DNA from: Nostoc sp. DedSLP01
GTDB lineage: Bacteria; Cyanobacteriota; Cyanobacteriia; Cyanobacteriales; Nostocaceae
Assembly: GCA_034530875.2 (NCBI GenBank)
Contig: JAVRCJ020000024.1
Span: forward strand, 1 to 64,000
Length of the DNA stretch: 64,000 nt
Direction: 5' to 3'
Positions 37,574-64,000 of the stretch are shown piece by piece; position 1 is the stretch's first letter; the number at the start of each line of letters is the position of its first letter. Under the pieces are notes generated by a model. The model saw only the letters and a list, made by a program, of their open reading frames with translations, did not search any database and had not been told where the DNA came from. The translations under genes were made by a program, and so were the position numbers.

Positions 37574-37687
37574 ATACCAATTCTGTATGAAGATGCACAT
37601 AATAAGACCCCCCTGTAGTCCCCCCTTAAAAAGGGGGGACGGCGACAGCCGGGGGGTAAATATATGCAGCTTCACAAAAAATGGTAT
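37574..37687. mobile_element. MITE with a GC-rich internal hairpin
   Basis: Ends ATACCA..TGAAGATGCA / TGCAGCTTCA..TGGTAT, with internal GTCCCCCCTT-AA-AAGGGGGGAC. Confidence 0.7.
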
Positions 37688-37715
37688 AACAAGTATTTAC
37701 TCACAAGCTTTTGAT

Positions 37716-39023: not shown

Positions 39024-39112
39024 ATCGATTAATCTGTTGAAAATTAGTAATATCAGTAGATTGCAAAGTTATCTGTTTAGATTGGCTTTAGGGTGTAGAG
39101 AAAGAATGGCAT

Positions 39113-39262
39113 TAGACTTCTTGCTCTTATTCGGGAAAAGGGGAAGGTGGGGTCCCCTCTGGGGATAAGGGGCGGGGGAAAGGGGGAAAGGTTTGGTATT
39201 TTCCCTTTAACATGCATCCCTTTGACCACAAGAGTGCAAAAAGCACTTTTGCAAAAGGTCTA
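39113..39262. mobile_element. MITE (TAGACyTyTTGCA terminal-repeat family)
   Basis: Ends TAGACTTCTTGC / GCAAAAGGTCTA, the same family as 45690-45761. Confidence 0.65.
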
Positions 39263-39306
39263 TTGATGAGTTAATTACAAACTCAGTTAAGGTTGTGTCA
39301 CAGGGT

Positions 39307-40134: not shown

Positions 40135-40184
40135 ATTTATGTTCCGTTAATCTTATTTGAATTAGAATTTTTTCTGCAAACAGG

Positions 40185-40991
40185 TTATTCTTGTGGAGTT
40201 ATTTTGAACGAGAAATAAGCCATTATTTTGTCTAGAATTATGCCAACTCCGCCCAAGTAAATAATTGCCAAGATGATTTCACTAATATCTGAGTTGTTGT
40301 ATGCATTGACGATAAAAAAGCCTATGCCGTCGTCAGAGAGCAACATCTCGGCTGCAACAACGGCTAACCAAGATAGACCAAGTGCAATCCTTAATCCTGT
40401 AAAAATGTAGGGAAGTGTAGCAGGGAGTAAAATTTTAAAAAAGTTCTCAAAAGTTGTGAACTCTAAAATTTTGGAGACGTTGGTGTAATCTTTAGGAATC
40501 TGCTGTACGCCTAAAGCAGTATTAAGAATAATCGGCCAAATTGCTGTAATAAAAATTACAAATATAGCTGAGGGGTCGGGTTTGAGAAAAATAGCCTGAG
40601 CAAGAGGCAGCCAAGCCAGAGGTGCAACCGGACGTAACAGTTGGATAATTGGATCGATCGCTAGTCTAGTAAATTTGTTCAAGCTAATAATAAAACCAAT
40701 CAGAATACCTGCGATCGCAGCTAGAAAATACCCAAAGGTCACTCGCTGAAGGCTGGCAATCAGCAACCAAAACAATCCTTTGTTATTAGTTCCCTTGTTA
40801 AAAAAGGGATCGATAATCAACTCCCAAGTATCAGTTATAACCGTAAAAGGAGAAGGCAAGGATGTTTCAGGATTTAAGCTGAGTAAATGCCATACAATTA
40901 ACAGAATTGTAATACCAAAAGCAGAGGCAATAATTTCCTGAGATTGCTTATACAAACTATGAAAACTAGAACTTTTAATATTTATCAACAT
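40185..40991 (-). CDS. Nitrate/bicarbonate-type ABC permease (NrtB-like)
   Basis: LRPVAPLAWLP, IWPIILNT and FTGLRIALGLSWLAVVAAEM. Confidence 0.92.
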   Translation of the reverse strand: MLINIKSSSFHSLYKQSQEIIASAFGITILLIVWHLLSLNPETSLPSPFTVITDTWELIIDPFFNKGTNNKGLFWLLIASLQRVTFGYFLAAIAGILIGFIISLNKFTRLAIDPIIQLLRPVAPLAWLPLAQAIFLKPDPSAIFVIFITAIWPIILNTALGVQQIPKDYTNVSKILEFTTFENFFKILLPATLPYIFTGLRIALGLSWLAVVAAEMLLSDDGIGFFIVNAYNNSDISEIILAIIYLGGVGIILDKIMAYFSFKITPQE

Positions 40992-43162: not shown

Positions 43163-43184
43163 TAAACCGCAAACTCTTTTTCTT

Positions 43185-47680: not shown

Positions 47681-49732
47681 CTACACAAACAGGAAATGAC
47701 TGCTAGCTGCTAACTGTTGAGGGCCAACACCAACAACTACAGCAATTAAGTCATTGTTAGAATAAATTCCAGCTCCTTGCGGTACGCCTGTCAAATCAGC
47801 CGGAACCGGGCCGAGTCCGATAGTAACTTGGATGTCTTCAGGTAGTTGGATAAAGTCCTGATTGAGGTTGAAATCAGTAATTAGAGCATAGTCTTGATTG
47901 CCCAGCTTGTCGTAATAGACTGCACTATCTTTACCCACAGTGAATTCACCAAGGAAAAAGATATCGCTACCGCTACCGCCAGTCAAAGTATCAATCTCTG
48001 GTTTGCCTAATCCAAATTCTGGAGGGAAGGGGTTAGAGCCAAATAATCTATCGTCACCATCACCACCAGAGAGAGAGTCACTACCAAGATTGCCAATCAG
48101 AACATCATTCCCAGACTCACCAAAGAGTTTGTCATCGCCGGTATCGCCGCCGAGTCGGTCGGCTCCATCACCTCCATAGGCGATATCGTTGCCTGAACCA
48201 GCAAAAACTTTATCGTTACCAGCATCACCATAGATCAGATCTTCTTCTGAACCACCAAGGATGTTATCATTCCCATCGCCACCAAAAACAGTATCCTTAC
48301 CATTTTGAGCAGCGATGTCATCGTTACCAGTTCCACCATTAATGGAATCATTACCACCGCCAGCAAAGAAAACATCGTTGCCAGCACCACCCAAAAGGGT
48401 ATCATTTCCCTCTACACCAAAGTCGAGGTCGCCATTCAGGTCAAAGTCGCCAAAAATTAAGTCGTTACCGGCACCGGCGTCAACGTAGTCGTTTCCAGCT
48501 CCGGAGATAAAATCGTCATCGCCACTACCGCCAAAAAGTCGGTCGTCACCATCAACAGCAAATGTCGTATTATTGCCACCCCCGGTAAAAATTGTGTCAT
48601 TGCCTGGGGTACCGATGAAACCTTCGGCAGCATCAGAGCCTGTGAAAATTCCTGTCCCTGGTGTCAAGTTGGGGGTTGGATTACCAAAGACGAACTTACC
48701 GGTAGATCCTAACTGTTGGGGTGTCACGCCAACAACTATAGCAATCAGATCGTTCGTGCCATTTCTGTTAGCGTAGATAGCTGTTCCTTGCGGTAAGCCG
48801 GGAGCTGTTGGGCCTAGTCCGATGATGGTTTGGAGGCTTTCTGGTAGTTGAATGAAGTCTTCTTTGACATTAAAATCGGTAATCAAGGCATAATCTTGAT
48901 TGCCTAGTTTGTCGTAGAATACTTTGGTGTTTTGCCCGACGGTGAATTCTCCAAGAAAGAAGATATCGCTACCAGCACCACCTGTTAAAGTATCGATTTC
49001 GGGCAATTCTAATCCTAATTCTGGGGGATAAGGGTTAGAGCCAATTATCCAATCGTTGCCATTACCACCAGATACTACGTCGTTGCCAACATTGCCAATC
49101 AGCAGGTCATTGCCACCACCACCATGAAGTGTGTCGTTGCCAGTATCGCCGCCGAGTCGGTCGTTACCGTCACCACCATAGAAGAGGTCATCTCCTGGCC
49201 CGGCAAGACCTCTATCGTCTCCAGCACCAGCACGAATAGTATCGTTGCCTAAACCACCAGTCAATAAATCGTTACCGTCATTGCCTTTAATGAGATCGTT
49301 GCCGTCTTGACCAGCTATGTTGTCATCTCCGGTGCCGCCATCTAATATATCGTTGCCACCGCCACCCAAGAAAACATCATTCCCAGCGCCGCCATTTAAG
49401 GTGTCATTTCCTTCTAGGCCAAAGTCGAGGTCTCCATTGGAGTTAAAGTCTCCAAAAATCAGGTCGTTTCCATCACCTGCATTTACAAAGTCATCTCCTG
49501 CACCAGCGACTAAAACATCATTTCCAATCCCGGCTAAAAGATGGTCTTTGCCACCAAGACCGAATAAAACATTATTGCTAGTTAATGCAGAAGTGTTAAT
49601 TTTGTCATTACCTGGAGTGCCAATAAAAGCTTCACCAGTTGGTGCATAAATTGGATTTGGATTAGCTGTGAAAATTGTGCCATCAGCTGTTACTTTACCA
49701 GTGTAGGGATTTGTAGTTTTGGGCTTTGCCAT
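47681..49732 (-). CDS. RTX/hemolysin-type calcium-binding repeat protein with an internal duplication
   Basis: Many GGxGxDxLx nonapeptides. Two modules each end in EIDTLTGG..SDIFFLGEFTVG..YDKLGNQDYALITDFN. Start placed at ATG 49732. Confidence 0.9.
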   Translation of the reverse strand: MAKPKTTNPYTGKVTADGTIFTANPNPIYAPTGEAFIGTPGNDKINTSALTSNNVLFGLGGKDHLLAGIGNDVLVAGAGDDFVNAGDGNDLIFGDFNSNGDLDFGLEGNDTLNGGAGNDVFLGGGGNDILDGGTGDDNIAGQDGNDLIKGNDGNDLLTGGLGNDTIRAGAGDDRGLAGPGDDLFYGGDGNDRLGGDTGNDTLHGGGGNDLLIGNVGNDVVSGGNGNDWIIGSNPYPPELGLELPEIDTLTGGAGSDIFFLGEFTVGQNTKVFYDKLGNQDYALITDFNVKEDFIQLPESLQTIIGLGPTAPGLPQGTAIYANRNGTNDLIAIVVGVTPQQLGSTGKFVFGNPTPNLTPGTGIFTGSDAAEGFIGTPGNDTIFTGGGNNTTFAVDGDDRLFGGSGDDDFISGAGNDYVDAGAGNDLIFGDFDLNGDLDFGVEGNDTLLGGAGNDVFFAGGGNDSINGGTGNDDIAAQNGKDTVFGGDGNDNILGGSEEDLIYGDAGNDKVFAGSGNDIAYGGDGADRLGGDTGDDKLFGESGNDVLIGNLGSDSLSGGDGDDRLFGSNPFPPEFGLGKPEIDTLTGGSGSDIFFLGEFTVGKDSAVYYDKLGNQDYALITDFNLNQDFIQLPEDIQVTIGLGPVPADLTGVPQGAGIYSNNDLIAVVVGVGPQQLAASSHFLFV

Positions 49733-50212
49733 ATTTTTTTCCTTCTTTGTTAGGGGAATATCTATCGATGACCAGCATAGTCCCATGCTGTTGGAGCGCG
49801 TTTTTTCTCTCAAAGAGTTTCAGGTTTGAGATTATTCAATTTCGTCCATTCATCGGGAATGTTATATATAGATGTAACCTAAATCTTTGTAGAGCCTTCA
49901 ATGCTCTTTTCAAACCACCCAATAATTAATATCTGCGGTTTTTAAACAATTTTGGGAGTGGTTTACTGGCTTGTTTACAAGCATACAATATTTTTATTTT
50001 TTTGTAAATTAAGAAAGATTTAACATCAGGTATATTTTGCGTTTATTTTTGGTGGCTTTAAGGAAAGTTTAAGGCTAAGTAAATTAACCACAAATTTCAC
50101 TTAAGCTCGTGAATTTTGAGGCAATTTAAAGCATATTTTTGCAGTAAAAAGACAATAATTTTGTATTGTTTTTTGAAGAAAAACTTTGCAATTTTATGTT
50201 TGTGAATTTTGC

Positions 50213-51130
50213 TTATTCCAGCAGATATTCTCGATAGTGTTGCCAGGTTTTATTATTTGATAAGCTTTCTACTGGAATATCTTTAATTTCAATTCCTGCT
50301 CGAGCTGCTATGCTGGACAAGACTTCGCTGGCTAATCCCGTGTAGCCTGGTTCGTTGCCAAGCAATTGACGGAATTTGGCAGCGCAACTAGCTCCTTTGG
50401 CCAACTCAAATACATAATCGTCGGCTACTTCGCCTAATGCTTCTAGAGTTGAGCGTTCTGCACCACCAATGGAAGCACAAGCGTAACCGATACCTCCCCA
50501 AAGGTCTGCTTGTCTTGTTGTGGGAAAAGCACTTATAGTCTTGGCAATGCGGTTAACATCAGCACAATCTACTAACCAAATGCTGCGGCCTAGACCTTGG
50601 TCAAAGACACGACAGGCATAGCCAGAAAGCTGGACGGGAAGAGCTTGACCGTCTATGTAGTCTTGCCAGTAATAAACACCATGATTAAAAGCATAACCAT
50701 CGATTACTGGCCAAGATGTTACGGGGTTCTGTGCATTTAAATGTAGCTCAATAGGCAGTTTGTACCGGACTAGTCCCAAACCCACCCCCAAATAAACCAT
50801 AGTTTGATAAGCTGCTGTGGTTTTTTCGAGAAAAGCCTCTACTCGATTTTGGTTCTGGGGTTTGAGTGCATTTAGTTCGGTGAGAGCTATACCTACACCT
50901 TCTAAGGCAAATCCTAGCAACTCGGAGTCAATTGCATTGAGCTTGGCAACGATCGCCTCTGGTTGTTCGTCTGCGATCGCTGCATGGTATCCTTGCCACA
51001 TACCCTCGGCAATATGTCCAAATCGCTGCGGCACTTTCGGATCTTTTACCATTACCTTACGTGCCGCTAAATTAGCTCTCATCTGCGTCCTAGCTTGTTC
51101 GGCATTGATTTGCCAAGCTTGTTGTATCAT
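50213..51130 (-). CDS. DUF1702 family protein (enediyne E2/E3/UnbL-like), paralog 3
   Basis: GFALEGVG, IDGYAF, FDQGLGRSIW and ADLWGGIGYA. Confidence 0.85.
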   Translation of the reverse strand: MIQQAWQINAEQARTQMRANLAARKVMVKDPKVPQRFGHIAEGMWQGYHAAIADEQPEAIVAKLNAIDSELLGFALEGVGIALTELNALKPQNQNRVEAFLEKTTAAYQTMVYLGVGLGLVRYKLPIELHLNAQNPVTSWPVIDGYAFNHGVYYWQDYIDGQALPVQLSGYACRVFDQGLGRSIWLVDCADVNRIAKTISAFPTTRQADLWGGIGYACASIGGAERSTLEALGEVADDYVFELAKGASCAAKFRQLLGNEPGYTGLASEVLSSIAARAGIEIKDIPVESLSNNKTWQHYREYLLE

Positions 51131-51235
51131 CTTTGTTGTCCTTGTTGAGCAATAGTTTCTGGAGGTAGCATTTCTTTAAACGCAAAGAGCGCAGAGGCAC
51201 GCAGAGAATTCGCTAGGAATTCATGAAATGTTGCA

Positions 51236-52156
51236 CTAAGCTGCTAGGGTTGTTCTAACCGGATGAAAAACACGCGCTCGGTAATGGTGCCAACTTTGAG
51301 ATTCTAGTGCTTGATGATTGACTAAAGTATTAGCTACAGCATCAGTACTCATTCCCCACAAGACTTGACAAGCTAATTCTGTGTAAGGTGAGTAATTACC
51401 AACAGATTGGCGGGATTTGGCAGCGTAAGCTGTTCCTTGGGCTAATTGAAATTGGTAAACATCTGCTGCATTTTTTAGGGCTTCTATGGTTGCACGTTCG
51501 GCACCGCCAGCGTAAGCACAGGCGTAACCGACACCACCCCACAAATCTTGTCGCCTATCTTGGGCAAAGGTATCTATGGTGCGTGCAATGTGATTGACAT
51601 CGCCACCACCGATAAACCAAATACTGCGACCTAAACCTTGGTCAAAAACACTGCAAGCATAACCAGGAATTTGTTCCGGGATGGCTTGATTATCGAGGGA
51701 GTCTTGCCAGCGAAACATGCCTTGATAGTAGCCATAACCATCAATTGCTAAACAACTTCTCTCAAAGTTGAGCTTGTTTAAATGCGGTTTAATAGGCAGT
51801 CCAGCACGAGCCAACATCAAACCCAAACCCACATAAACCCAGTTATGATAAGCTGCACCATCACCTGCAACAAGAGTTGCCATCCGATTTTCGCTGCTGG
51901 GTGCGAGTAAGTCGCGTTGCGCTAGAGCCATACCGACGCCTTCGTAAGCAAAACCTTGCAATTCTGCATCGATTTCATTGATTTTAGGAGCGATCGCTTT
52001 TAAATCTTCACTAGCGATCGCTACATGATATCCTTGTAAAACCGTACTCCCAATCTTGCTTAATCGCTGTTGCACTCCGGCATCGCTTTTTTGAATTCCG
52101 CGTTTAGCCCAAGTATCAGCCATTAAGGTGTTAGCTTCATTTGTTTTAATTTCCAC
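51236..52156 (-). CDS. DUF1702 family protein, paralog 2
   Basis: GFAYEGVGM, IDGYGY, FDQGLGRSIWF and DLWGGVGYACAYAGG. Confidence 0.88.
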   Translation of the reverse strand: MEIKTNEANTLMADTWAKRGIQKSDAGVQQRLSKIGSTVLQGYHVAIASEDLKAIAPKINEIDAELQGFAYEGVGMALAQRDLLAPSSENRMATLVAGDGAAYHNWVYVGLGLMLARAGLPIKPHLNKLNFERSCLAIDGYGYYQGMFRWQDSLDNQAIPEQIPGYACSVFDQGLGRSIWFIGGGDVNHIARTIDTFAQDRRQDLWGGVGYACAYAGGAERATIEALKNAADVYQFQLAQGTAYAAKSRQSVGNYSPYTELACQVLWGMSTDAVANTLVNHQALESQSWHHYRARVFHPVRTTLAA

Positions 52157-52187
52157 GATTCAAATTATCCTTGTAACGCAATAAGTA

Positions 52188-53129
52188 CTAAGCTGCTACA
52201 GTTGTTCTAACTGGATGAGGTATCCGCGACCTGTAATGCTGCCATAGAGGAGATTCTGGAGTTTCGCCATTAGTGGCTAAACTGTCAGCTACAGTATCAG
52301 CACTCACTCCCCACAACACGCGACAAGCCAATTCTGTGTAAACTGACTGATTACCAAGACATTGACGCGACTTGGCAGCATAAGCAGTACCTTGCGCTAA
52401 ATGCAAGCGATAAGCACCTGCTGCATTTCCTAAGGCTTCTATGGTTGCGCGTTCGGCACCACCAGCATAAGCACAGGCATAACCTACACCACCCCATAAG
52501 TCTTGTCGCCTATCGAGTGAAAAAGCATCAATGGTACGTGCAATGCGATTAACATCACCACCATCGACAAACCAAATACTGCGACCTAGACCTTGGTCGA
52601 AAACACTGCGGGTATAACCGGAAATTCCTGGCGAGATGACTTGCTTATCGAGGGAGTCTCGCCAATAAAACATCCCTTGATAGTAGCCGTAGCCATCGAC
52701 TAATAACCAACCCTTAGCGGTATCGAGTCTTTGCAAATGAGGTTCGATAGGTCGCCCAACTCTAGCTAACATCAAACCTAAACCCACATAAACCATGTTT
52801 GCATAAGGCGCACCATCACCTGTAACAAAGGTGGCTATACGATTTTGGCTAATTGGTGTGAGAAAATCGCGCTGTGCTAGTCCCATACCGACGCCTTCGT
52901 AAGCAAAGCCCCGCAACTCTTCATCGATTTCATTTAATTTGGGAGCGATCGCTTCTAATTCATCAGTAACAGCCGTGTGGTATCCTTTCATTAACGAACG
53001 GCCGACCTGTTCCAATCGCTTTTGTACACCAGCATCGCTTTCGCGCACGTCGCGTTCTGCCCAAGTAGCGATTAAATCTGTTGGTAATGTGGCTTTATTT
53101 AAACTTGATTGCCAAGCGTCTTGTATCAT
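52188..53129 (-). CDS. DUF1702 family protein, paralog 1
   Basis: RGFAYEGVGM, VDGYGY, FDQGLGRSIWF and DLWGGVGYACAYAGG. Confidence 0.88.
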   Translation of the reverse strand: MIQDAWQSSLNKATLPTDLIATWAERDVRESDAGVQKRLEQVGRSLMKGYHTAVTDELEAIAPKLNEIDEELRGFAYEGVGMGLAQRDFLTPISQNRIATFVTGDGAPYANMVYVGLGLMLARVGRPIEPHLQRLDTAKGWLLVDGYGYYQGMFYWRDSLDKQVISPGISGYTRSVFDQGLGRSIWFVDGGDVNRIARTIDAFSLDRRQDLWGGVGYACAYAGGAERATIEALGNAAGAYRLHLAQGTAYAAKSRQCLGNQSVYTELACRVLWGVSADTVADSLATNGETPESPLWQHYRSRIPHPVRTTVAA

Positions 53130-53144
53130 AATATTTTTCCTAAT

Positions 53145-54572
53145 TTAAAAAGCTGAATGCATGGAATTTTCCGGAATCCAAGTTCCGTGGAAACCGAAAG
53201 GAACTCGCTGCGGTAGAAGAATGCGGGCTACAGGTTCCTCTGTAATGTCTTGAGCATTAAGAACTACTAATTCTGAAGTTCTTGTAGCTTCGTCGTAGAC
53301 GAAAGTTAATAACCAACCATCATCCTCTTGAGTAGCGTGGGGACGCGGGACAAATACTGCCTCTCCTCCATAACGACCAGACCCCCACTCGTGGGTTTGG
53401 GAATAACCATTGGCAAAGTCATACTTAATTACTGCATCTAAAAAGAAAATAGGCAGCTGTTCCGGCACCATTCTGGCTGTGTAACCGTATTGATTTCGTC
53501 TGCCGACAAATTGCTGATTTAAAGTAGGAAATTCTGAAGCCAAATCATCAATTCTGCCTTCTCGCACTGCACCTGTGCGCAGATTGAAGCGCCAGCCATA
53601 TAACTGCGGCTTATTAACTTGATTATAGCGTAAATTTGTCTTTGTCGGTATGTTTAGTAGTTGAGCATCATCTGTGCGACAGCCAATGACGACAACTTCC
53701 TCTCCTGTTTCATAAGCATTGAGAGTATGCAAAACATAACAGGTAGAAACTTCAAACCAGCGGATATTGCTGTTATTGCCATGACGGGGAATGATACCAA
53801 AGCGGCTGGGCAGATTTGGTTCAAACATGTAACCTGGTTCTCTGCGTCGTAGCCTTTCTAAACTCAATGTCAGGGGCAAATCCATGAATATTGTATAGTT
53901 TGCAGTGATGGCAAAGTCATGCATCATGACCCCTCTAGGCAAATCTATGGGAATTGTTCTCAGTAACTCTCCTTTAGCTGAAACTACACCATATCTTAAA
54001 TAAGGTGGCTGTAGTAGAGAATAGCCAAAAAACATCATTTCCCCAGTTACAAAATCAACTTTCGGGTGAGCAGTGAAGGGAGAATTCAGTTGTCTTTTAT
54101 AAGCGAATGGCCCGATTGTTGTTAAGTCAGGTACGCTAATTTTGTATGGTTCAGCTCCCTCCCAAAGGGCCAAGAGTTGACCTGCGTGCCACACCAGGTT
54201 AGTGTTAGCAGTGTTCTTGAACGGACTGAAAAGATTATTGGGGGGGTTTTGCAGCTGTGGCGACTCCATCAAACTTGTCCAGATGGCTTTACCTACTTTC
54301 TGTTCTAGTTTAAATCCCCGTGTCTGGACATAGCGGTTGCGGTAAGTGGCTTTGCCATTACTAATCTGCACCCCATGCAACATACCATCTCCATCAATCC
54401 ATTTGTAATCGCCTTTGGGGAGAAATTGAGGATTAGGGCCATTGCGAATAAACATTCCTGATAAATCAGTTGGTAATTCTCCAATTACCAAGAGGTTACC
54501 GGCTGTGATTTCTGTTTGTACGGGAGAAAAATTACCTGTGAGATAAGGGCTGATTTTTTGAGCGACAATCAT
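53145..54572 (-). CDS. Carotenoid-cleavage oxygenase family protein
   Basis: YLTGNFSPV, RNGPNP and DGDGMLH, with four Fe-ligand His residues (TAHPK, MMHDF, VLHTLN, GFHGTW). Start placed at ATG 54572. Confidence 0.93.
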   Translation of the reverse strand: MIVAQKISPYLTGNFSPVQTEITAGNLLVIGELPTDLSGMFIRNGPNPQFLPKGDYKWIDGDGMLHGVQISNGKATYRNRYVQTRGFKLEQKVGKAIWTSLMESPQLQNPPNNLFSPFKNTANTNLVWHAGQLLALWEGAEPYKISVPDLTTIGPFAYKRQLNSPFTAHPKVDFVTGEMMFFGYSLLQPPYLRYGVVSAKGELLRTIPIDLPRGVMMHDFAITANYTIFMDLPLTLSLERLRRREPGYMFEPNLPSRFGIIPRHGNNSNIRWFEVSTCYVLHTLNAYETGEEVVVIGCRTDDAQLLNIPTKTNLRYNQVNKPQLYGWRFNLRTGAVREGRIDDLASEFPTLNQQFVGRRNQYGYTARMVPEQLPIFFLDAVIKYDFANGYSQTHEWGSGRYGGEAVFVPRPHATQEDDGWLLTFVYDEATRTSELVVLNAQDITEEPVARILLPQRVPFGFHGTWIPENSMHSAF

Positions 54573-54610
54573 AGTTAAAACTATTTGATTATGGTGAATA
54601 AGATTATTAG

Positions 54611-55966
54611 TTAATGCTTCTTCTTTTCTGGGTAGGGAGGATATCTCCATTTCAAATCCATCAGAAAAGATTTATTTAATATACCTCTTTGATAAGAGAA
54701 GTTATCAAAGCCAGCTTTACCATGATAACGACCCATACCACTAGCACCAACTCCACCAAAAGGTAAAGCCGGAACGGTTAAATGCATCACGGTATCGTTA
54801 ATGCAAACTCCACCAGAGACTGTTTGCTGCAAAATTCGCTCTTGATTTTTTTGATTGCTGGAAAAGAAGTATAAAGCAAGGGGTTTTGGTTGTCGATTAA
54901 CTAAGGCGATCGCCTCTGATAAATTTGTATACTCTAAAACAGGAAGAATTGGGCCAAAAATCTCTTCTTGCATTATCTTGTCTTGCCAAGAGACTTTATC
55001 AATGACAGTAGGAGCAATATAAAGATCCTCTATATTTGTTTCGCCTCCCACTAAAATTTCCCCACTTCCTAATAATTGGGAAAGGCGACAGAAATGCTTT
55101 TGATTTATGACTCTAGCATAGCTCTTACTTACTGAAGGGTCATCACCGTAAAAATTTCGGATTTGTTTTTTGATATTGGTCAATAAATCTGTTTTAATTT
55201 TACGATTTACTAACAGATAATCGGGTGCAGTACAAGTTTGCCCAGCATTAAAGAATTTGCCCCAAACAATTCTTTTAGCTGTATGTTCGATGTGAATATG
55301 CTCGTCAACAATACAAGGACTTTTGCCACCAAGTTCAAGGGTAACTGGTGTTAAATTTTTAGCGGCTGCTGCCATCACAATTTTACCAACTTCAGTACCG
55401 CCAGTAAAAAAGATATGGTCGAAATTTTTTGATAATAGTTCTTGACTGGTTTCAATACCGCCTTCAATGACTTCAATAAAAGATGGGTCGAAATTTTCAC
55501 GAACTATTTTAGCTATAAGTTGAGAAGTAGCAGGAGCTATTTCTGATGGTTTTAAAATTGTACAATTTCCAGCAGCGATCGCACCTACTAAGGGTGCAAA
55601 CATCAAGTTAAATGGATAATTCCAAGGCCCAATAATTAAAATTATACCAAGAGGTTCAGAACGGATTTGAGCAGAAGAAAGAAACTGATAAAAGGGAGTA
55701 GGAGCTTTCTGCGGTTTTACCCACGATCTAATATTTTTGAGAGCAAATTTAATTTCTTCTAAAACTCCAATAATTTCAAAATACGCTTCAAATCCTGACT
55801 TATGCAAATCAGCTTTTAAAGCTTGAACAATATTATCTTTATTGTTCTCAATTACTTGTTGAAGAATTTTCAGTTGTTGAATCCGAAAATCAATATTCTT
55901 AGTTTTGCCAGTATTAAAAAACTGGCGCTGATGTTCGAGTTCATTATAATCTATTTGAGTGAGCAT
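54611..55966 (-). CDS. Aldehyde dehydrogenase (ALDH3-like)
   Basis: PWNYP, FTGG, LELGGKSP, AGQTC (catalytic Cys) and EEIFGP. Confidence 0.93.
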   Translation of the reverse strand: MLTQIDYNELEHQRQFFNTGKTKNIDFRIQQLKILQQVIENNKDNIVQALKADLHKSGFEAYFEIIGVLEEIKFALKNIRSWVKPQKAPTPFYQFLSSAQIRSEPLGIILIIGPWNYPFNLMFAPLVGAIAAGNCTILKPSEIAPATSQLIAKIVRENFDPSFIEVIEGGIETSQELLSKNFDHIFFTGGTEVGKIVMAAAAKNLTPVTLELGGKSPCIVDEHIHIEHTAKRIVWGKFFNAGQTCTAPDYLLVNRKIKTDLLTNIKKQIRNFYGDDPSVSKSYARVINQKHFCRLSQLLGSGEILVGGETNIEDLYIAPTVIDKVSWQDKIMQEEIFGPILPVLEYTNLSEAIALVNRQPKPLALYFFSSNQKNQERILQQTVSGGVCINDTVMHLTVPALPFGGVGASGMGRYHGKAGFDNFSYQRGILNKSFLMDLKWRYPPYPEKKKH

Positions 55967-56081
55967 AGCTTTTTAGGTATTCAGCTAGTAGTTATTAGGT
56001 CATTGAAAAAAGAAATGGCAGCGGCTAATTGTGTAACTTTTAAAACTAAACTGCCATTTCAGTTGTTTTCCTCAGCTAAAA

Positions 56082-57953
56082 TTAAGACCTGATTTCAGCT
56101 TGTAGTGATACTAATTCTGGAACTTTTGCTGTATCTTCGTTCTTTAGGCTTTGTAATTCATTAGTTCCATTTTCTACGCTTTTTCCATTACCCAAGCTAA
56201 TCCAAGGCTGCAATTTTGGTTGATGTTGGTAACTCTTGAAAGCTTCTCTAGCTTTTGCAGTGATACTGTTGTCTGGTACACCTCTAGTTTTCAATTTGAA
56301 AATAAAGTTATCCCAACCAGCTACAGCAGATGCTTTCAGTAAAGCGAAAACGTGCTTGAGGTTTTGTGGCGCTAACAAGCCTTTTATTCCAAATGCCTTC
56401 CACAAAAACTTCAGATACCAAATAGCGACAAAGAAGTGAGTGTATTGCATAGAAACAAAAACATTAGCTCGTTGGGGTTCATACTTAGTGAGGTGGATAT
56501 ATTCATCAAAATCTCGGCTCATTATGTAATTAAAAGGCAATTCATCTGCTCGATGGGTATACATAAACCCAATATTGGCGTTCTTTTCTGCCAACTCTGT
56601 TAACTGTTTGTAGGCAGCATTTAGTATCTCTGTAATGTATACACGACCTGGTTGTTTAATTTTTGCCAGGAAATTCAAATCTAAATGCCATTTCCCTACA
56701 TACAAAGGAATCATCATACCAAACCACCACATGTTTTCTAGGAACATGCGATAACTCATGATGCTAGCGTTACCAAGATGTTTAGGATGATTGCTAACAA
56801 GAAGATTGTTGCGATCGATCATTCCTAAATTAAAGCCGTTATAAACTGCACGTTTCTTCTCTGCATCTGGTTCGCCTGCTAACTTAGCGCGAATTACTTC
56901 TGTAATGGTGTCTATTTCAAAAGACATCATCGTCATTCCCATCGAATAGAAAGGATCGAAGATAGCTGCTGCATCACCAATTACATACCAGTTATCTCTT
57001 GAGAGAATAGTCTTACTCTTGTGCGCTAGCCTTGGCCAGTAATGAAAATCGATTTCCTCTCCACTCTTGAGCAGTCGATAAATAATGTTATGATTCGCTT
57101 CCAGAAAAGCATAAAACTTTTCTTTAGTATTGACACTGTGAGCATCAATATATTCGTGATGGTGGACTAATCCGATTGACAATTCCATGTTTTGGGTGTC
57201 TGTGGGAATCATCCAAATCCAATGTCCGTGTCCCATCCAATGATTAGTAGCGTAGTAGTGGCTACAGGTGGAAACTAAAGGATCGTAACCGCTATGAAAG
57301 ATAGTGCGATCGACATTTTTAACGCGCATCCATGCCGAACCATTATTAACGCCACACACATTTTCAGGGCCAAATAATAGATTATCTGTCTTACGACCGA
57401 TGATAAATTTGCGTCCTGCCGCATCAATAACATGTTTGGCTGTAAGTTCGATATACTCACCATCTAGTTTGACTTTCACCACATTCAAACCATCTCCAGG
57501 CGTTAAGTCAACATCAACAACACGGCCTTGATAAAAGACAGCACCCATCTGTTGATTCATCCTCAGCACATCTCGCTCAAATTTAGGACGGTGAATCAGA
57601 ACAGAAGCCAAGGGCGGTTGGCGAATAGCCCAAAGATGATGGTAGTCATTAATGTTTTCTGTACTTTCTGGATGCTTAGGCCAATGAAAGTTTAAACCGA
57701 ATTTTGGCGGATGATGCTCAACCATGTAGTCATAAAGACCCAACTCTTTACAAATCATTAACGTAGAGATTTCAACCGCTGATTCACCTACTTTCAAATC
57801 TTTTTCTGTCCGTTCTTCAGGACGAGGATCGACCAAAGCAATTTTGATATTGGGAACATTAAGTAACAGGTGACGAGCTTGGCATACCCCTGCTAATCCA
57901 GCACCCATAATTACTACATCATAATTATAGGTTTGGCATTGAGTGCTATTCAT
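56082..57953 (-). CDS. Flavin-dependent halogenase-like protein B
   Basis: GAGLAG, LKVGES, WIWMIP and GDAAAIFDPFYS. Confidence 0.85.
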   Translation of the reverse strand: MNSTQCQTYNYDVVIMGAGLAGVCQARHLLLNVPNIKIALVDPRPEERTEKDLKVGESAVEISTLMICKELGLYDYMVEHHPPKFGLNFHWPKHPESTENINDYHHLWAIRQPPLASVLIHRPKFERDVLRMNQQMGAVFYQGRVVDVDLTPGDGLNVVKVKLDGEYIELTAKHVIDAAGRKFIIGRKTDNLLFGPENVCGVNNGSAWMRVKNVDRTIFHSGYDPLVSTCSHYYATNHWMGHGHWIWMIPTDTQNMELSIGLVHHHEYIDAHSVNTKEKFYAFLEANHNIIYRLLKSGEEIDFHYWPRLAHKSKTILSRDNWYVIGDAAAIFDPFYSMGMTMMSFEIDTITEVIRAKLAGEPDAEKKRAVYNGFNLGMIDRNNLLVSNHPKHLGNASIMSYRMFLENMWWFGMMIPLYVGKWHLDLNFLAKIKQPGRVYITEILNAAYKQLTELAEKNANIGFMYTHRADELPFNYIMSRDFDEYIHLTKYEPQRANVFVSMQYTHFFVAIWYLKFLWKAFGIKGLLAPQNLKHVFALLKASAVAGWDNFIFKLKTRGVPDNSITAKAREAFKSYQHQPKLQPWISLGNGKSVENGTNELQSLKNEDTAKVPELVSLQAEIRS

Positions 57954-58008
57954 GGAATTTTCCTTTTTACTAAGTACAAAAATTGATTAATGTGATTTTT
58001 TTTTGTGT

Positions 58009-58140
58009 CACGCAAAGACGCAAAGGCGCAAAGAAGAGAATGAAAAGAAGGACTTACTAAAGTAGTGAGTACTTCGCTTATCTTGTTGGGCAAACCTCTG
58101 CGTAACTTTGCATTTGACTCTGCGCCCCTGGAGCGTTTAA
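58009..58140. repeat. ACGCA(A/G)AG repeat / REP-like inverted pair
   Basis: CACGCAAAGACGCAAAGGCGCAAAG faces CTCTGCG units. Similar repeats at about 51180-51210 and 60067-60106. Confidence 0.55.
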
Positions 58141-58177
58141 AAACAAAAGCTTGTGTACCTCACTTAACTGGAAATTG

Positions 58178-59998
58178 CTATAGTTTGGCGGCAACTAACT
58201 CTTGCTCTGGCAACTTTTGAAATTCAACACTTTTACTCGCAAACCAAGGCTTCAACTCAGGCTGATATCTATAACTCTTAAACTCTTCTTTAGCCCTAGC
58301 AATTTCACTATTAGCCGGGAGATTTTTGGTCTTGCACCGATAAATAAAATCATCCCAGCTAGCTTGAGCAGATGCACCGAGTAAAGCAAAAACATGTTTC
58401 AGATTCTTTGGCGACAACAGACCTTTTAATCCAAAACCTTTCCACAAGAATTTAAGATACCAAAGAGCAACAAAGAAGTAAATGTTTTTCATATATGCAA
58501 AAACATTGCATTTTTGAGGTTCGTATTTCGTGTTTTGCAGATAGCTATCAAATTCTTGGGTCATGTAATAGCCAAAGGGTAACTGTTGCCCTCTATGAAC
58601 GTACATCATGCCAATATTGGCGTCTTTTTCTATCAGTTCATTGAATTGTTCGTAAACATGAGACATCAATGTTCTAATAACTTGACGGCTTTGTTGGCTA
58701 AATTTACGCAGAAACTTCAAATCTAAATGCCATTTGCCAACATACATAGGCACAATCATGCCGAACCACCACATATTTTCAAGGTAGACGCGCCAGCTCA
58801 TGATGCTAGCGTGACCGAGTTGTTTGGCGTGGCCGTGGAGAAGATGATTGCAAGATTCTATATAGCCAAGATTGTAAGCATTATACACAGCCCGCTTCTT
58901 CTCTGCATCCGGCTCGTTTGCTAATTTTGCTCGGATAATTTCTGTGACACTTTCCATTTGGAATGTCATCATTACCATTCCTAAGGAATAGAAAGGATCG
59001 AAGATGGCAGCCGCATCACCAATTACATACCAATTATCTGGAGAAAACAGAGTTTTACTCTTATGTGCTGCCCTTGGTAAGTAATGAAAGTCAACGTCTT
59101 CTCCACTTTTAACTAGTTGGTAAAGAATGTTGTGATTGGCTTCTAGAAAAGCATAAAACTTTTCTTTGGTGTTAACACTTTGGGCTGGAATAACTTCATG
59201 ATGATGGGATACTCCTACTGATAATTCCATAGTTTGAGTATCTGTAGGAATGACCCAAATCCAATGGCCGTGACCCATCATGTGATTGGTGGCATAGTAA
59301 TGGCTGCATGTCGCACCTGTAGGATCGTAACCGCTATGGAAAATAGTGCGATCGACATTTTTAACTCGTACCCATGCAGAACCATTATTAAGACCAGCAA
59401 GTTTCTCAGGGCCAAAGAGTACATTATCTGTTTTATGGCCAATGATAAATTTGCGTCCTGCTGCATCAATAAGATGTTTGGCTTTCAGTTCTACGTAGTC
59501 ATTACCTACTTTGACTTTAACATTATTTGGAGTATCACCAGAGGCTAGATCGACATCAACTACACGACCATTGTAAAAGTCAACTCCCATCTGTTTATTC
59601 ATTTTCAAGACATCACGCTCGAACTTAGCGCGGTTCATCAGAACGGAAGCTAGCGGGGGTTGTTTGATAGACCAAACATGGTAATAATCATCAATGCTTT
59701 GGGTATTTTTTGGGTCTTTCGGCCAATGATAGTTTAGTCCATATTTGGGCGGATGATTCTCAATTAAGTAATCATAAAGACCCAATTCTTTGCCGAAAAA
59801 GAGAGTGGAAATTTCGACAGTTGATTCACCTATTTTTAAATCTTTTTCGGTTCGTTCTTCAGGACGGGGGTCAATTAAGGCAATTTTGATGTTGGGGATA
59901 TTTAGTAGTAAGTGACGAGCTTGAGATACTCCAGCTATCCCAGCACCCATAATGACGACATCGTAAGTTTGAGAGCGAGTTGTTTTGTTGACTGACAT
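58178..59998 (-). CDS. Flavin-dependent halogenase-like protein A
   Basis: GAGIAG, LKIGESTVE, WIWVIP and GDAAAIFDPFYS. Confidence 0.85.
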   Translation of the reverse strand: MSVNKTTRSQTYDVVIMGAGIAGVSQARHLLLNIPNIKIALIDPRPEERTEKDLKIGESTVEISTLFFGKELGLYDYLIENHPPKYGLNYHWPKDPKNTQSIDDYYHVWSIKQPPLASVLMNRAKFERDVLKMNKQMGVDFYNGRVVDVDLASGDTPNNVKVKVGNDYVELKAKHLIDAAGRKFIIGHKTDNVLFGPEKLAGLNNGSAWVRVKNVDRTIFHSGYDPTGATCSHYYATNHMMGHGHWIWVIPTDTQTMELSVGVSHHHEVIPAQSVNTKEKFYAFLEANHNILYQLVKSGEDVDFHYLPRAAHKSKTLFSPDNWYVIGDAAAIFDPFYSLGMVMMTFQMESVTEIIRAKLANEPDAEKKRAVYNAYNLGYIESCNHLLHGHAKQLGHASIMSWRVYLENMWWFGMIVPMYVGKWHLDLKFLRKFSQQSRQVIRTLMSHVYEQFNELIEKDANIGMMYVHRGQQLPFGYYMTQEFDSYLQNTKYEPQKCNVFAYMKNIYFFVALWYLKFLWKGFGLKGLLSPKNLKHVFALLGASAQASWDDFIYRCKTKNLPANSEIARAKEEFKSYRYQPELKPWFASKSVEFQKLPEQELVAAKL

Positions 59999-60118
59999 TT
60001 TCTGTTTTGTTCGTTAAAAGTTTTGAGAGGTGGGCAGATTTTTGATGAAACCTCATTTTGTGGTATCACGCAGAGGCGCTCCAGACGCAGAGGAGAGAAC
60101 GCAAAGTAAGGACTTGAG

Positions 60119-63100
60119 TTAAATTGAGCCAGCAATCCAATTTAAGGAACGGAATGGAATTACAACTAAGGCAATCATTCTTTCAGGGCTGCGTGTTAGT
60201 TTGATGGGGAAGGTGAGAACTTTAAGTTGGCTGTTGGCAGTGGCATCGCTGAATAAGATGCTATCCCCTTCTATGCGTTCGATCGCCAAATTAATATCTT
60301 TGACTTTAGTCGCCTTACGCAAGGCTTCTATAGCTGTCCAAATCCGCGTACCTGCGCTATCTACTGACTCTTTAGTTTCTAGCTGTTGGATTAATGGATA
60401 TCGAGAAGAATTCAGTAAGGCAATCCAATCTTCGGTACTGCGATGAGTTATCGGTTCGATATCGCAACCTTGCACTCCTCGACCGGCAACGCAGAAACAA
60501 ACACGTTCGTCATGGGCAAGGGATACTTCGATTTTTTCTTCCGCCAGTCCCACAACTACTGGTTTGCCAGATTCCGTCCACTGAATGCGGACTTTGGATA
60601 TGAGATTAGCATTATTGTTCAAAAGTTGAGCGATCGCTCTGTGGAATAAAGGTAATTCCAATTGATGGCGTTCTGTGGGTAAGAGTGTATGGATACCGGG
60701 AAGATAACCCAATGATATCTCTGGTGCGACAACTTTGAATAAAGGCGATCGATTGCTCAATTCTCTAGCAAGAATCAGTTCATCTCTTTGACTGGGATCT
60801 GCCAAATCTTCAGCAGTGGGATTCTCCTGGCGGTGTTCTAGTATCCGCAATTGATAGCTATTGAGTCTTTCGATAACACGACCATCGGGAGCTACTAAGA
60901 AAACATTACTGCGATACTGTTGACCTTCTCGCCCTTGTGGTGTAGTCACACCAATATACGAACCAGCTTCATCTTTATCTGATTGATAGATTTCAATACT
61001 ATCGATGCGGATGGGCAAACAAAGATCCTGGGGAATTACTAGTTGTCCGGCTTGTAACAAAGAGTCTCTGCAATAAGGATCTCCCAGTAAGAAAGGCCCT
61101 TGCGCTCTATCTAAAGATTGTTTTTGCTCCTCGGCAGAATACAAGTTTCTTTGGGTTTTGAATACGCACTTCTGGGAATTCAGGCTATAAACCTGTTGTA
61201 AACGCTGGAACTTGGTCCCTTGGAATAGTAACCAACTATAGAGATCTGCTTGAGGCTCAATATCTAGAGGCACTTCTGGAACTTCAACCTGTTCTAGAGG
61301 TGGCTGTTTGTCAACATCTAGTAAAAATGTCGCTGAAAAATGGCTGATGGCAAATCCTGTCTGTTCTGTTTTGATGGTGACATAAACTTGCTGCGGATCG
61401 CTTTTTAACTTCCTCTCCAGTACCTCTGCATGAATTTCTATGTCTACTCCTTTGTCAGGAGCTACAACAATAGGACGTTCCAGACGGATATCTTCTATTT
61501 GTACAGCTGGTAAGGAATCTTGACTGGTGACATAAGCAACTGCTTGTGCCATAGCTTCCAAACCAAATACAGTCGGGAACAGATACGAACCTTTATACAG
61601 GTGATCATGTAAGTATGAATCCCGTTCCAGACTCAGATGCGCCCTGAGAACAACCTCTACACCTGGTTGATAAATCAAGATTTTCTCTAAAAACTTCGAT
61701 TTAGCAGGAGGTGAGAACAATCCAGGATACCAAGTATCAAAGCCACTCGATTCAAAAGCTGCTAAGGTTTGCATCGGTGCGGCTATCACAACTCGCAAAT
61801 CTGCGGCTTCATTTTTGATGAGATGCAAGAATCGACTAACGCCTGCATCTTTGGGAATGGCACTAATACCCATCTTGTTCAGGCTGCGCACGCTACCCAT
61901 CCGCGCCCCCATACCTACTTCTTCCCAGACGCTGTACGCCATTGATACCACGGCAGTTTCAGGGTGCTGGACTTGAAAACGGCGTAAAATCAGATCCAAA
62001 GTTTCATTAGAGAAGCCATACCAAGCATTGCGTTGCATCCCTGTAAAGCCGATGACTGAAGAGAAACCAGCGAAAAGCTTCAGTGATGTACCTTCTAGTG
62101 CTTTACAGAGATTAATCAAACCGAGAAGCTTAGGACTGATTTCATCAAATGCTGCTTCTGTAGAGACTTGCTCAATCAGTCTCGGCTTATTGAGAGCAGC
62201 CCCGTGAATAACTCCTGATATCTCACCTAGTTCTTGTCTGACTTTTTGTAAAAGATTAACTACTGCTTGATAGTCAGCAACATCGCACGCATAGTAGCGG
62301 CAGGTTAATCCTTCAGATTGAAAGCGTAAGAGAGTGCGGGTAATATCAGAATTACTGTTGTCATCCTGATGAAGCGAACGTCCCACAAGTACCACGCGGA
62401 CACCTGTATCTTTAGCCAGAGCCAAGGCACACTCGGCAGTAATACCTTTTGCTCCACCTGTAACGAGGATGACATCCTCAGATGACCAGGTAATATTCCG
62501 GTCTAAATAATCTACAGGTTGCTGTACCTGAGGCCGAGGAACGTAACGTCTGAGATCGGTATCGTAACTTACAGTTGTATAGACGTGGGGAGTAGAAAGT
62601 TCTCTAAAGACGCATTCTGCTAGATTATTGGGATCTACCGTAGGAGAGAAATCAATTACTCGAACTTTGAGATCGGTTCGTTCTAGATGCAAGCTGGCAG
62701 CAAAGCCAACTGTACAGCATTGGTCGATATCTGGTAGTGGCAGTTTTGCTCCGAAATATCCCCCACTAAATTGAACGTAAGCTACTGTTGTATGGTCGCG
62801 GGATGCTAGAGGTGGAGTGGCGATACTGCGTAACCGTTCAATCATCCCAATCAGACGAGCTTCTGATGACAGTTGAGCATTCGGTGTAGAAGGTAATACC
62901 GCGATGAAGTGGGTTAAATTGAGGCTGTTAGCTAGTGTTTGAGGGCTGGCTTCTGCAAAGGTTAGACTTTGAACTTGAGCGCCTTGAGTCCGAAGTTGGT
63001 CTGATAAGGCTGCTATTTTGTCTGCATTACTTAATTCATAAAGAATTAGGACATTTGCAGCTTGCCAGTTTTCTTCCATCTGTCTGCCTAAAGCGACTGA

Positions 63101-64000
63101 GGGAATTTCCTCTGGAACATTTTGGACGATATAATCGCGTACCAGTTGCTTACGGGTTAACTCTGGCCCGATCGCTGTTATTTTGCCATTGTTTTGTCTA
63201 AAATCTTGCTTGAGAGAAACTGTTGAGCTAGATTCTGAGATTTTGATTCCATTACCGTTACCATTATTGTTTGGTATGTAATTGTGAATTGTCTCAGCAA
63301 TCTCTTGAATCGTGGCGTTGGCTAGAGAAGGCGGGTCAATTTTCCCGGCGGCGCCAAATAGCTTGGCGGCTTCTGCGACGACTTCACCGGCTTTGATGGA
63401 ATCAAGGTTGAGGTCGTCGAGCAATCGCAATTCGGCTGTGATACTTTCTCTGACATATCCTGTTTGTTGGATAATCAGGTCAGTCAGTGAAGAGGCGATC
63501 GCATCAGTTGTTTTCGTTAAGCTTGTGGGTATTATAGAAGCTGCTTCATGACCGTTGGATATGAAACTGCGAATCGTTTCAGCTATCTCTTGAATTGTGG
63601 CATTGGCTAAAGCAGGTGGGTCAATTTTCCCAGCCACACCATATTGTTTGGCGGCTTCTGCGACAATTTCACCGGCTTTGATGGAATCAAGGTTGAGGTC
63701 GTCAAGCAATCGCAATTCTGCTGTAATACTTTCTCTGACATATCCTGTTTGGCGAACAATCAAGTCTGCTAACAAGAACTCAACACTCTGATTAGTGTTT
63801 GTTTCTGCTGGCTTCAGTAACGTAGAAACGGTACTGTGGGAACCATTACCATTAACTGCATGAGTTATTCTCGCACCATTTTGAGGTGTTGCAGCTAAAG
63901 GCAGAGTTTGCATATCGGCTCGGATGACTTCAGCGATAAACTTACCGCGTCGAGCCAGGTAATCTTGCAGTACCTCTGGTGAAGTATGGTTATGTTCGGC
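60119..64000 (-). CDS. Iterative type I PKS, enediyne PKSE-like; 5' part beyond the window; visible domains ACP-ACP-KR-DH-PPTase
   Basis: The frame is open to 64000. Two ACPs carry LDDLNLDSIK. KR: VTGGAKGITAECALALA, YGFSNE, SVWEEVGMG. DH: YLHDH....LFPTVFGLEAMAQ, LLGDP..RD. PPTase: SLAH, GCDIE, RIWTAIEALRKA. Confidence 0.9.
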   Translation of the reverse strand, partial: AEHNHTSPEVLQDYLARRGKFIAEVIRADMQTLPLAATPQNGARITHAVNGNGSHSTVSTLLKPAETNTNQSVEFLLADLIVRQTGYVRESITAELRLLDDLNLDSIKAGEIVAEAAKQYGVAGKIDPPALANATIQEIAETIRSFISNGHEAASIIPTSLTKTTDAIASSLTDLIIQQTGYVRESITAELRLLDDLNLDSIKAGEVVAEAAKLFGAAGKIDPPSLANATIQEIAETIHNYIPNNNGNGNGIKISESSSTVSLKQDFRQNNGKITAIGPELTRKQLVRDYIVQNVPEEIPSVALGRQMEENWQAANVLILYELSNADKIAALSDQLRTQGAQVQSLTFAEASPQTLANSLNLTHFIAVLPSTPNAQLSSEARLIGMIERLRSIATPPLASRDHTTVAYVQFSGGYFGAKLPLPDIDQCCTVGFAASLHLERTDLKVRVIDFSPTVDPNNLAECVFRELSTPHVYTTVSYDTDLRRYVPRPQVQQPVDYLDRNITWSSEDVILVTGGAKGITAECALALAKDTGVRVVLVGRSLHQDDNSNSDITRTLLRFQSEGLTCRYYACDVADYQAVVNLLQKVRQELGEISGVIHGAALNKPRLIEQVSTEAAFDEISPKLLGLINLCKALEGTSLKLFAGFSSVIGFTGMQRNAWYGFSNETLDLILRRFQVQHPETAVVSMAYSVWEEVGMGARMGSVRSLNKMGISAIPKDAGVSRFLHLIKNEAADLRVVIAAPMQTLAAFESSGFDTWYPGLFSPPAKSKFLEKILIYQPGVEVVLRAHLSLERDSYLHDHLYKGSYLFPTVFGLEAMAQAVAYVTSQDSLPAVQIEDIRLERPIVVAPDKGVDIEIHAEVLERKLKSDPQQVYVTIKTEQTGFAISHFSATFLLDVDKQPPLEQVEVPEVPLDIEPQADLYSWLLFQGTKFQRLQQVYSLNSQKCVFKTQRNLYSAEEQKQSLDRAQGPFLLGDPYCRDSLLQAGQLVIPQDLCLPIRIDSIEIYQSDKDEAGSYIGVTTPQGREGQQYRSNVFLVAPDGRVIERLNSYQLRILEHRQENPTAEDLADPSQRDELILARELSNRSPLFKVVAPEISLGYLPGIHTLLPTERHQLELPLFHRAIAQLLNNNANLISKVRIQWTESGKPVVVGLAEEKIEVSLAHDERVCFCVAGRGVQGCDIEPITHRSTEDWIALLNSSRYPLIQQLETKESVDSAGTRIWTAIEALRKATKVKDINLAIERIEGDSILFSDATANSQLKVLTFPIKLTRSPERMIALVVIPFRSLNWIAGSI

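Follow-up and report, generated by a model that had tools for sequence, protein, structure and literature searches.

What does a polyketide synthase (PKS) resembling those of enediyne pathways make when its gene is followed by two halogenase-like genes, an aldehyde dehydrogenase (ALDH), a carotenoid-cleavage oxygenase (CCO) and three DUF1702 genes? This gene run lies in the first 64,000 nucleotides (the window) of contig JAVRCJ020000024.1 of the cyanobacterium Nostoc sp. DedSLP01. The contig is 127 kb long and begins with the window, and the coordinates below are contig and window positions alike. An earlier note, made from the letters of the window, had described the run and proposed that it may yield a halogenated, oxidatively shortened polyene/polyyne acid. 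Its observation was confirmed and its interpretation is partly supported. The cluster is a real, intact and widespread orphan; what sets it apart is that it lacks a thioesterase (TE) altogether. Our best guess for what it would make, if only a modestly favored one, remains a conjugated polyene carboxylic acid that is halogenated, shortened by oxidation and possibly amidated.

The eight minus-strand open reading frames (ORFs) that the earlier note had placed at 50213-64000, with short spacers, were all open and without interruption. Their Pfam families (PP-binding, KR and DH in the PKS part, Trp_halogenase twice, Aldedh, RPE65 and DUF1702 three times) agreed with its labels. From the PKS to DUF1702 c, the intergenic gaps measure 120, 224, 115, ∼38, 15, 31 and 105 bp; the ∼38-bp gap between ALDH and CCO assumes the probable CCO start at 54572, as the longest CCO ORF overlaps ALDH by 40 bp. 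The gene order PKS-halogenase(s)-ALDH-CCO-DUF1702 recurred in 15 of the 22 fetched loci, while five loci end at contig edges and two represent a Scytonema variant. Because the same order is found in 15/22 loci, the arrangement is not due to chance, and the synteny in relatives on which the earlier note depended is borne out. The nearest named loci, from Nostoc and Desmonostoc, are 88–89% identical. In all 14 gene pairs tested against close relatives, dN/dS ranged from 0.07 to 0.29; the cluster genes are under purifying selection. Scans of the locus gave no clear excess of promoters (42 versus 34 ± 7 in shuffles) or terminators (11 versus 15 ± 3.5 in shuffles). Among the sequencing runs listed as carrying the locus, none was from RNA, and the three that carry it in full may derive from this very DNA.

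Extending the sequence past 64000 revealed that the PKS continues to 66925, with KS-AT in front. The full gene (contig 60119-66925) is intact and encodes 2268 aa in the order KS-AT-ACP-ACP-KR-DH-PPTase, without an ER, MT or thioesterase domain. The KS-AT motifs are present (GACSSS, EGHGTGT and GHTKAA for the KS Cys/His/His; GHSLGE and HAFHS, with the AT Ser), as are DSIK in both ACPs, TGGAKGI, YGFSN (KR Tyr), the DH His and Asp, and GCDIE and WTAIEALRK in the C-terminal PPTase; we take these motifs to have the catalytic roles given. The earlier note's C-terminal PPTase thus stands on its motifs and on an alignment with the C terminus of SgcE from the C-1027 cluster (30% identity over 138 aa, E 9e-15), but the domain is weak in Pfam (PF01648 E 0.009, below its cut-off). 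Identity to SgcE was 42% over KS-AT and 30% over KR-DH-PPT.

To place the KS we used a quick tree of 49 rows with one actinobacterial PKSE only (supports are SH-aLRT). PKSE and PKSE-like sequences grouped together (100), apart from HglE/PfaA and modular KS. SgcE formed a 3-row canonical PKSE clade (98) with two cyanobacterial sequences, from genomes G103 and G141 (G and L numbers are our handles for genomes and loci). The window KS fell in a 22-row subclade (99) of a 38-row PKSE-like clade (95), sister to the canonical PKSE. A PUFA or heterocyst-glycolipid synthase is rejected by this quick tree, and TIGR02813 scored 607 bits versus a cut-off of 1010. The PKS is therefore PKSE-like, as proposed; of the canonical hallmark that had been claimed, the domain order KS-AT-ACP-KR-DH-PPTase holds, but the KS belongs to the sister clade. 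PKSE-like synthases with a fused tandem TE were also seen in records named Nitrospirota, Thermodesulfobacteriota, Thermoflavimicrobium and Methanoperedens, and some of these non-cyanobacterial synthases carry FAD-oxidoreductase or PilZ domains (P0045, P0052, P0065, P0066, P0077, P0079, P0080, P0082, P0083 and others). These synthases make up a broad PKSE sister family.

Is the cluster, then, an enediyne cluster? Enediyne clusters are defined by a five-gene cassette, in which E together with E10 makes a heptaene (PMC4480864), and PKSE produces carrier-bound polyenes (PMC9682884). The window PKS shares with the cassette the domain order, with its weak PPTase and no ER, and the cluster shares the DUF1702 genes. 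However, its ACPs are in tandem, its KS lies in the sister clade, and flavin halogenases, CCO and ALDH stand in place of E4 and E10, with no linked E5. The genome, which is 99.8% complete, gave no tblastn match to E4 (CRTAC1/UnbV) at E 1e-3 with three E4 queries and none to the E10 hotdog thioesterase. E5 (UnbU, RnfD-like) had partial matches of 27–32% on contigs C23 and C31 only, none linked to the PKS, and DUF1702 occurred in these three genes only. The upstream E4, E5 and E10 that the earlier note had suggested looking for were thus not recovered. Because E4 and E10 were not found and the E5 matches are weak and unlinked, the cluster does not qualify as an enediyne one, although its PKS probably still behaves like PKSE up to the polyene.

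Canonical cassettes do occur in cyanobacteria. Genomes G103 and G141 have the E3-E4-E5-E-E10 order (roles assigned by order, size and similarity); therefore, both PKSE types occur in this phylum. Small secreted-looking genes lie between E4 and E5 in these cassettes (L038-L039 in G103, L044 in G141). At L047 (G314), the stretch that was read contains E3, E4 and E10 but no PKS. A T1PKS labelled "enediyne" in 10.1101/2022.10.12.511943 may be such a canonical cassette.

We wondered how the chain leaves a synthase of this kind. A hidden Markov model (HMM) built from four E10 proteins picked out a tandem hotdog TE at the C terminus of many PKSE-like relatives, whereas it found none in the window PKS and none in loci L003-L024. 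When a broader TE HMM was run on the six-frame translation of the genome, a single weak match (E 0.0096) came up, on another contig. We tallied gene content over 53 locus sets, with known duplicates counted once and some genes double-counted in split sets; the sets are kin, many were chosen by halogenase search, which biases the tally, and loci were read over 10–35 kb. TE was present in 20/53 sets and absent from 33/53. In the TE-less clade that includes the window, CCO was found in 21 of 24 sets (the three misses end at contig edges) and DUF1702 in 19 of 24. Two Scytonema sets consisted of PKS-CCO-AsnB(-ALDH), without halogenase, DUF1702 or TE. TE-bearing sets had CCO in 2/20, ALDH in 0/20 and a single DUF1702 gene in 4/20. 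Five other TE-less sets had a split PKS followed directly by two DUF1702 genes, with CCO in one of the five. A strict mutual exclusion of TE and CCO was rejected: Gloeothece and G651 have both, and the TE-less G746, G711 and G447 have neither CCO nor DUF1702, while TE-less G312 has CCO without DUF1702. Given this kinship and the halogenase-based choice of many sets, the pattern is only suggestive and carries no statistical weight. As a separate observation, many clusters with a TE and some without one have, after the halogenases, a gene for a protein of 116–133 aa that matches no Pfam family (L067:16530-16928, L150:14923-15276 and similar).

The CCO matched RPE65 at E 1.4e-150, and its nearest solved structure family was carotenoid 9,10-dioxygenase (E 6e-106; 358 bits versus 221 for lignostilbene dioxygenases). 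Its four Fe-binding His motifs (AHPK, MHDF, LHTLN and GFHG) aligned with those of the solved carotenoid 9,10-dioxygenase. The cluster CCOs formed their own 19-row clade (99), sister to stand-alone CCD1-like copies, and paralogs elsewhere in the genome were 62% (CCO) and 61% (ALDH) identical; by its phylogeny, the CCO is a cluster-specific duplicate. Four other PKS-linked CCOs (two Scytonema, Gloeothece and G651) came from a different CCO subfamily. Because PKS-linked CCOs fall in two subfamilies, the tree indicates that this PKS type acquired a cleavage enzyme on two or more occasions. CCD1 paired with an aldehyde dehydrogenase is a route to apocarotenoic acids. The cluster likewise combines a CCD1-type enzyme, with its four His motifs, and an ALDH, but here the two are dedicated duplicates within a polyketide gene run and their substrate is presumably a polyketide polyene.

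The two flavin enzymes matched Trp_halogenase with E 1.7e-8 (A) and 6.7e-9 (B), and the best PDB match of A was PltA (E 2e-15). GxGxxG, PxKYG, WxWxIP and the catalytic Lys are present; we assume that these motifs mark FAD binding and the catalytic Lys. The FAD, catalytic-Lys and WxWxIP motifs are shared with carrier-dependent halogenases of the PltA type, although similarity to PltA is only distant. "Halogenase" is thus a predicted label founded on motifs and distant homology only. Of 300 genomes sampled from the host's family, 38 had a member of this halogenase family, which, where context was read, mostly lay beside PKSE-like PKS and sometimes beside modular PKS/NRPS genes. The relatives adjoining such modular genes are 58–65% identical; in one case (L064), the halogenase gene is flanked by a small ACP-like gene and a PKS. 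JamD is a carrier-dependent flavin halogenase that acts as an alkyne halogenase. Identity of the family with JamD was not established, as a 65% relative in Moorena producens JHB does not bear that name; more distant matches (26–31%) sit in NRPS-type or other contexts. PMC12210266 deals with aetokthonotoxin. In Desmonostoc geniculatum (L004:4542-5126), halogenase A is shortened to 194 aa, halogenase B is missing and the remaining genes are intact; this locus is possibly a natural non-halogenating variant.

From the observed gene content, motifs, synteny and selection, we infer all chemical steps of the following pathway. The self-priming iterative PKS would build an ACP-bound all-trans polyene from malonyl units, as expected because of PKSE chemistry and the lack of ER and MT domains. 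The two flavin enzymes would add Cl or Br to the electron-rich polyene, probably on the carrier. The dedicated CCO would then cut one C=C bond to give a halo-polyenal, which ALDH would oxidize to the acid. AsnB may form an amide, and DevBCA would export the product. As no E10-type thioesterase was found in the PKS or elsewhere in the genome, the CCO cut would be the likeliest single candidate for chain release within this pathway, a tentative assignment that falls short of an even call.

Several points weigh against this pathway. The halogenases match characterized ones distantly (PltA, E 2e-15) and may instead be monooxygenases. Among the locus sets, loss of the TE does not go one-to-one with gain of a CCO, and the 24 TE-less sets are mostly one clade and so amount to about one event. 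Many comparison loci were selected by halogenase search, and each covered 10–35 kb. Finally, on-carrier cleavage leaves an ACP stub still to be removed.

The three DUF1702 proteins of the window matched their Pfam family with E 1e-63 to 1e-80. They fell in their own 21-row clade, 25–34% identical to the C-1027 copies, and the tree did not separate E2 from E3 orthology for them. Protein a was predicted to be all-helical (pLDDT 86.5), with no PDB sequence match and no fold match (best Z 4.2); the Atlas gave essentially the same family. A heterodimer prediction for a and c returned a score of 0.00 and no verdict. We take the DUF1702 proteins to be putative conserved partners that act in tailoring or as scaffolds. 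In G243 (L041:9875-10930), a DUF1702 gene of canonical type stands alone, with no PKS, E4 or halogenase recognized in the 40 kb read.

Could the DUF1702 proteins instead make alkynes? Halogenation would then be at least partly cryptic: the flavin halogenases would replace E4/E5 iodination, DUF1702 would remove HX from vinyl halides to leave alkynes, and CCO and ALDH would trim the chain to a (halo)enyne or polyyne acid. We rate this as unlikely, though it is the best of the alternatives. Diiodotetrayne is reportedly a product of the five-gene enediyne cassette. In an unselected survey of 401 genomes, 10 genomes exceeded the DUF1702 cut-off, and in nine of these DUF1702 lay beside either these halogenases (6) or E4 (3), with one beside neither; the two halogenase-less Scytonema loci also lack DUF1702. 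No His is among the conserved residues of the alignment, which are Glu, Asp, Arg, Tyr and Trp and include Glu78, Asp145 and Arg183; this set fits acid-base chemistry rather than a metal site. Production of sungeidine and dynemicin needs iodide (PMC11350584). However, no E3 function was found in the literature searched, the separate clade of the window proteins sets them apart from the C-1027 copies, and 16 of 20 TE-bearing halogenase clusters lack DUF1702, so halogens are probably kept there. A wider version, more doubtful still, would be an all-soluble, enediyne-like alkyne chemistry in which the ACP-bound polyene is halogenated, DUF1702 eliminates HX to form triple bonds, CCO releases the chain oxidatively in place of a TE, and an ABC importer supplies halide. 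If true, E3 would gain a function, and polyketide synthases a further, new way of off-loading their chains.

Alternatively, CCO and ALDH may destroy a reactive polyene in self-protection or make an apocarotenoid, with release by the DUF1702 pair, AsnB or a trans hydrolase. This comes next in likelihood and is again doubtful. It accords with the stand-alone paralogs of CCO (62%) and ALDH (61%), with the carotenoid-cutting activity of the nearest solved CCO, and with an alpha/beta hydrolase within the G067 cluster. In the second TE-less lineage, moreover, two DUF1702 genes occupy the TE's place in 5/5 loci, versus at most one DUF1702 gene, in 4/20, among TE-bearing loci. Yet the CCO-ALDH pair lies inside the gene run, between halogenases and DUF1702, the CCO clade is cluster-specific, and the Scytonema variant retains only PKS-CCO-AsnB(-ALDH), without DUF1702 or TE.

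In a third alternative, the polyene cyclizes to a haloaryl-vinyl intermediate that CCO and ALDH cut to an acid of halobenzoic type. The compound 2,4-dichlorobenzoic acid is known from Subsection V cyanobacteria (PMC4558948), and Fischerella, which belongs to that group, carries the cluster. The best NCBIfam match of ALDH was the benzaldehyde dehydrogenase MdlD (452 bits, under cut-off), and CCO also matches lignostilbene dioxygenases. But CCO is far closer to carotenoid 9,10-dioxygenase (358 versus 221 bits) and no cyclase was recognizable, making this route highly improbable. There is even less chance that this is the missing fischerellin cluster: fischerellins have N-heterocycles, methyl branches and saturated stretches and no halogen, a structure that does not fit. 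Fischerella muscicola SAG 1427-1 and F. thermalis do carry the cluster, and no gene cluster had been assigned by 2021 to the fischerellins, which are polyynes from cyanobacteria (PMC8406139), but the Fischerella loci lack a recognized NRPS and AsnB, and the window PKS lacks MT and ER. A true cyclic enediyne, suggested by the PKSE-like PKS and the E2/E3-family genes, has next to no chance given the missing E4 and E10, the weak and unlinked E5, a KS outside the canonical clade and the separate canonical cassettes of G103 and G141.

The halogenated, shortened polyene acid would come from a cluster family that is already on record, as the earlier note said. Three papers describe it: a PksE-like PKS with three halogenases in Microcystis PCC 7806 (PMC2442094); CF-45, an orphan cyanobacterial iterative PKS family from four genomes (Microcystis PCC 7806, PCC 6712, a PCC 7822 plasmid and PCC 9339) with product unknown (PMC4247773); and a four-halogenase cluster of Hyella PCC 6712, product unknown, with relatives in Fischerella, Gloeothece and Microcystis (PMC8472315). 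The Hyella cluster is probably of the same family as CF-45. By its gene content, the window cluster belongs to CF-45, membership meaning here a PKSE-like PKS with several related halogenases; the authors of CF-45 cluster at an average identity of >54% across shared genes. We compared it with the PCC 7822 plasmid cluster, which we took to be the plasmid PKS cluster listed in CF-45. Its KS is 71% and its three halogenases are 59–61% identical, and it has a CCO; however, it carries a fused tandem hotdog TE, its CCO is of another subfamily, and no ALDH or DUF1702 occurs in the 33 kb read. The window variant is TE-less and has a CCD1-type CCO, ALDH, three DUF1702 genes, DUF302 and AsnB. The open literature, covered mostly by abstracts and without subscription papers, contained nothing that evidently assigns a product or describes a TE-less CCO-ALDH-DUF1702 variant. 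The orphan family is known; the TE-less variant with a dedicated CCO-ALDH pair and 2–3 DUF1702 genes is, within this coverage, new.

Table 1. Genes of the cluster and its flanks (locus sets as tallied in the text).
Feature	Position	Strand	Basis or remark
PKSE-like iterative PKS, 3' part in window	60119..64000	-	Pfam, motifs, SgcE similarity, KS tree
Flavin-dependent halogenase-like A, 606 aa	58178..59998	-	Trp_halogenase, PltA match, motifs
Flavin-dependent halogenase-like B, 623 aa, 70% to A	56082..57953	-	Trp_halogenase, motifs
Aldehyde dehydrogenase (ALDH), 451 aa	54611..55966	-	Aldedh
CCD1-type carotenoid-cleavage oxygenase (CCO), probable start 54572	53145..54650	-	RPE65, four His motifs
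DUF1702 (E2/E3-family) protein a	52188..53129	-	Pfam DUF1702
DUF1702 protein b, 67% identical to a	51236..52156	-	Pfam DUF1702
DUF1702 protein c, separate subclade	50213..51130	-	Pfam DUF1702
RTX Ca-binding repeat protein	47681..49813	-	follows cluster in closest relatives too
Cholesterol-oxidase-like GMC oxidoreductase	45800..47350	-	homolog in 8/53 related locus sets
Nrt/Cmp-family anion ABC importer + NrtS	37215..40991	-	cluster-linked subclade
DUF302 gene, beyond window	contig 67102-67602	-	homolog in 11/24 locus sets of window's clade
AsnB amidotransferase, beyond window	contig 67740-69662	-	
MarR-DevBCA exporter, divergent, beyond window	contig 71285-75215	+	

The genes at 50213-64000 are those the earlier note had listed, but the cluster runs further both ways (Table 1). 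DUF302, AsnB and MarR-DevBCA are conserved upstream of the PKS in the closest relatives and are probably cluster members. Downstream come genes for an RTX-repeat protein, a cholesterol-oxidase-like enzyme, a UbiA protein, a PEP-CTERM protein, two proteins that we label YCII-like, an ECF sigma factor and an Nrt-type importer; G952 has a nearly identical gene run from importer to exporter. The GMC oxidoreductase, which has an RR signal-like N terminus, is probably an accessory cluster gene; we do not claim it as an SgcE9 ortholog (27% identity only). Such cholesterol oxidases accompany antifungal polyene clusters in streptomycetes, and by this analogy the gene hints at a eukaryotic target. The UbiA-family membrane protein (44380-45453; genome paralogs 48% and 43%) might, we assume, be a UbiA-type terpene cyclase. 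At 41443-43654, the ECF sigma factor, with DUF6596, is preceded by two 98% identical 119-aa genes (42717-43076 and 43295-43654). In L012, too, the cluster is flanked by a sigma pair of this kind; the 119-aa gene is present in only one copy in G952.

The three-gene importer consists of a permease (40185-40991), an ATPase (39307-40134) and a binding protein (37716-39023), is accompanied by NrtS (37215-37598), and is distinct from two genome paralogs (permease 54% and 45%). Among 300 genomes, the binding protein had 16 matches of ≥80%. For thirteen of them, such a halogenase was no more than ∼35 kb away on that contig; one was in a genome with halogenases on other contigs, and two had no halogenase match. 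A general link between importer and halogenase was rejected, as it concerns only this 80%-plus subclade: in the 69–78% group, whose members mostly stand alone, 0 of 17 loci read had a halogenase relative. Compared with NrtA, the binding protein has TGD for THD and CVDPW for VGEPW, positions that we take to be nitrate ligands of NrtA. Our guess is that the importer carries halide, with nitrite or cyanate as rival substrates. A TauE/SafE-type exporter recurs beside halogenase clusters (G647, G447, G033, G569 and G690 loci) and also lies beside the canonical enediyne cassette of G103 (L039:5410-6414); it is possibly another halide transporter.

The halogenase family recurs in the host's family, yet no product has surfaced in the literature searched. 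The variant offers a small system for testing the role of DUF1702/E3, an open point in enediyne biosynthesis, and for finding out if a carotenoid oxygenase is able to shorten a polyketide or to free it from its synthase. Fischerella PCC 7521, Nostoc NIES-4103 and Nostoc PCC 9305 carry the cluster and are held in culture collections, so the compound can be sought directly.

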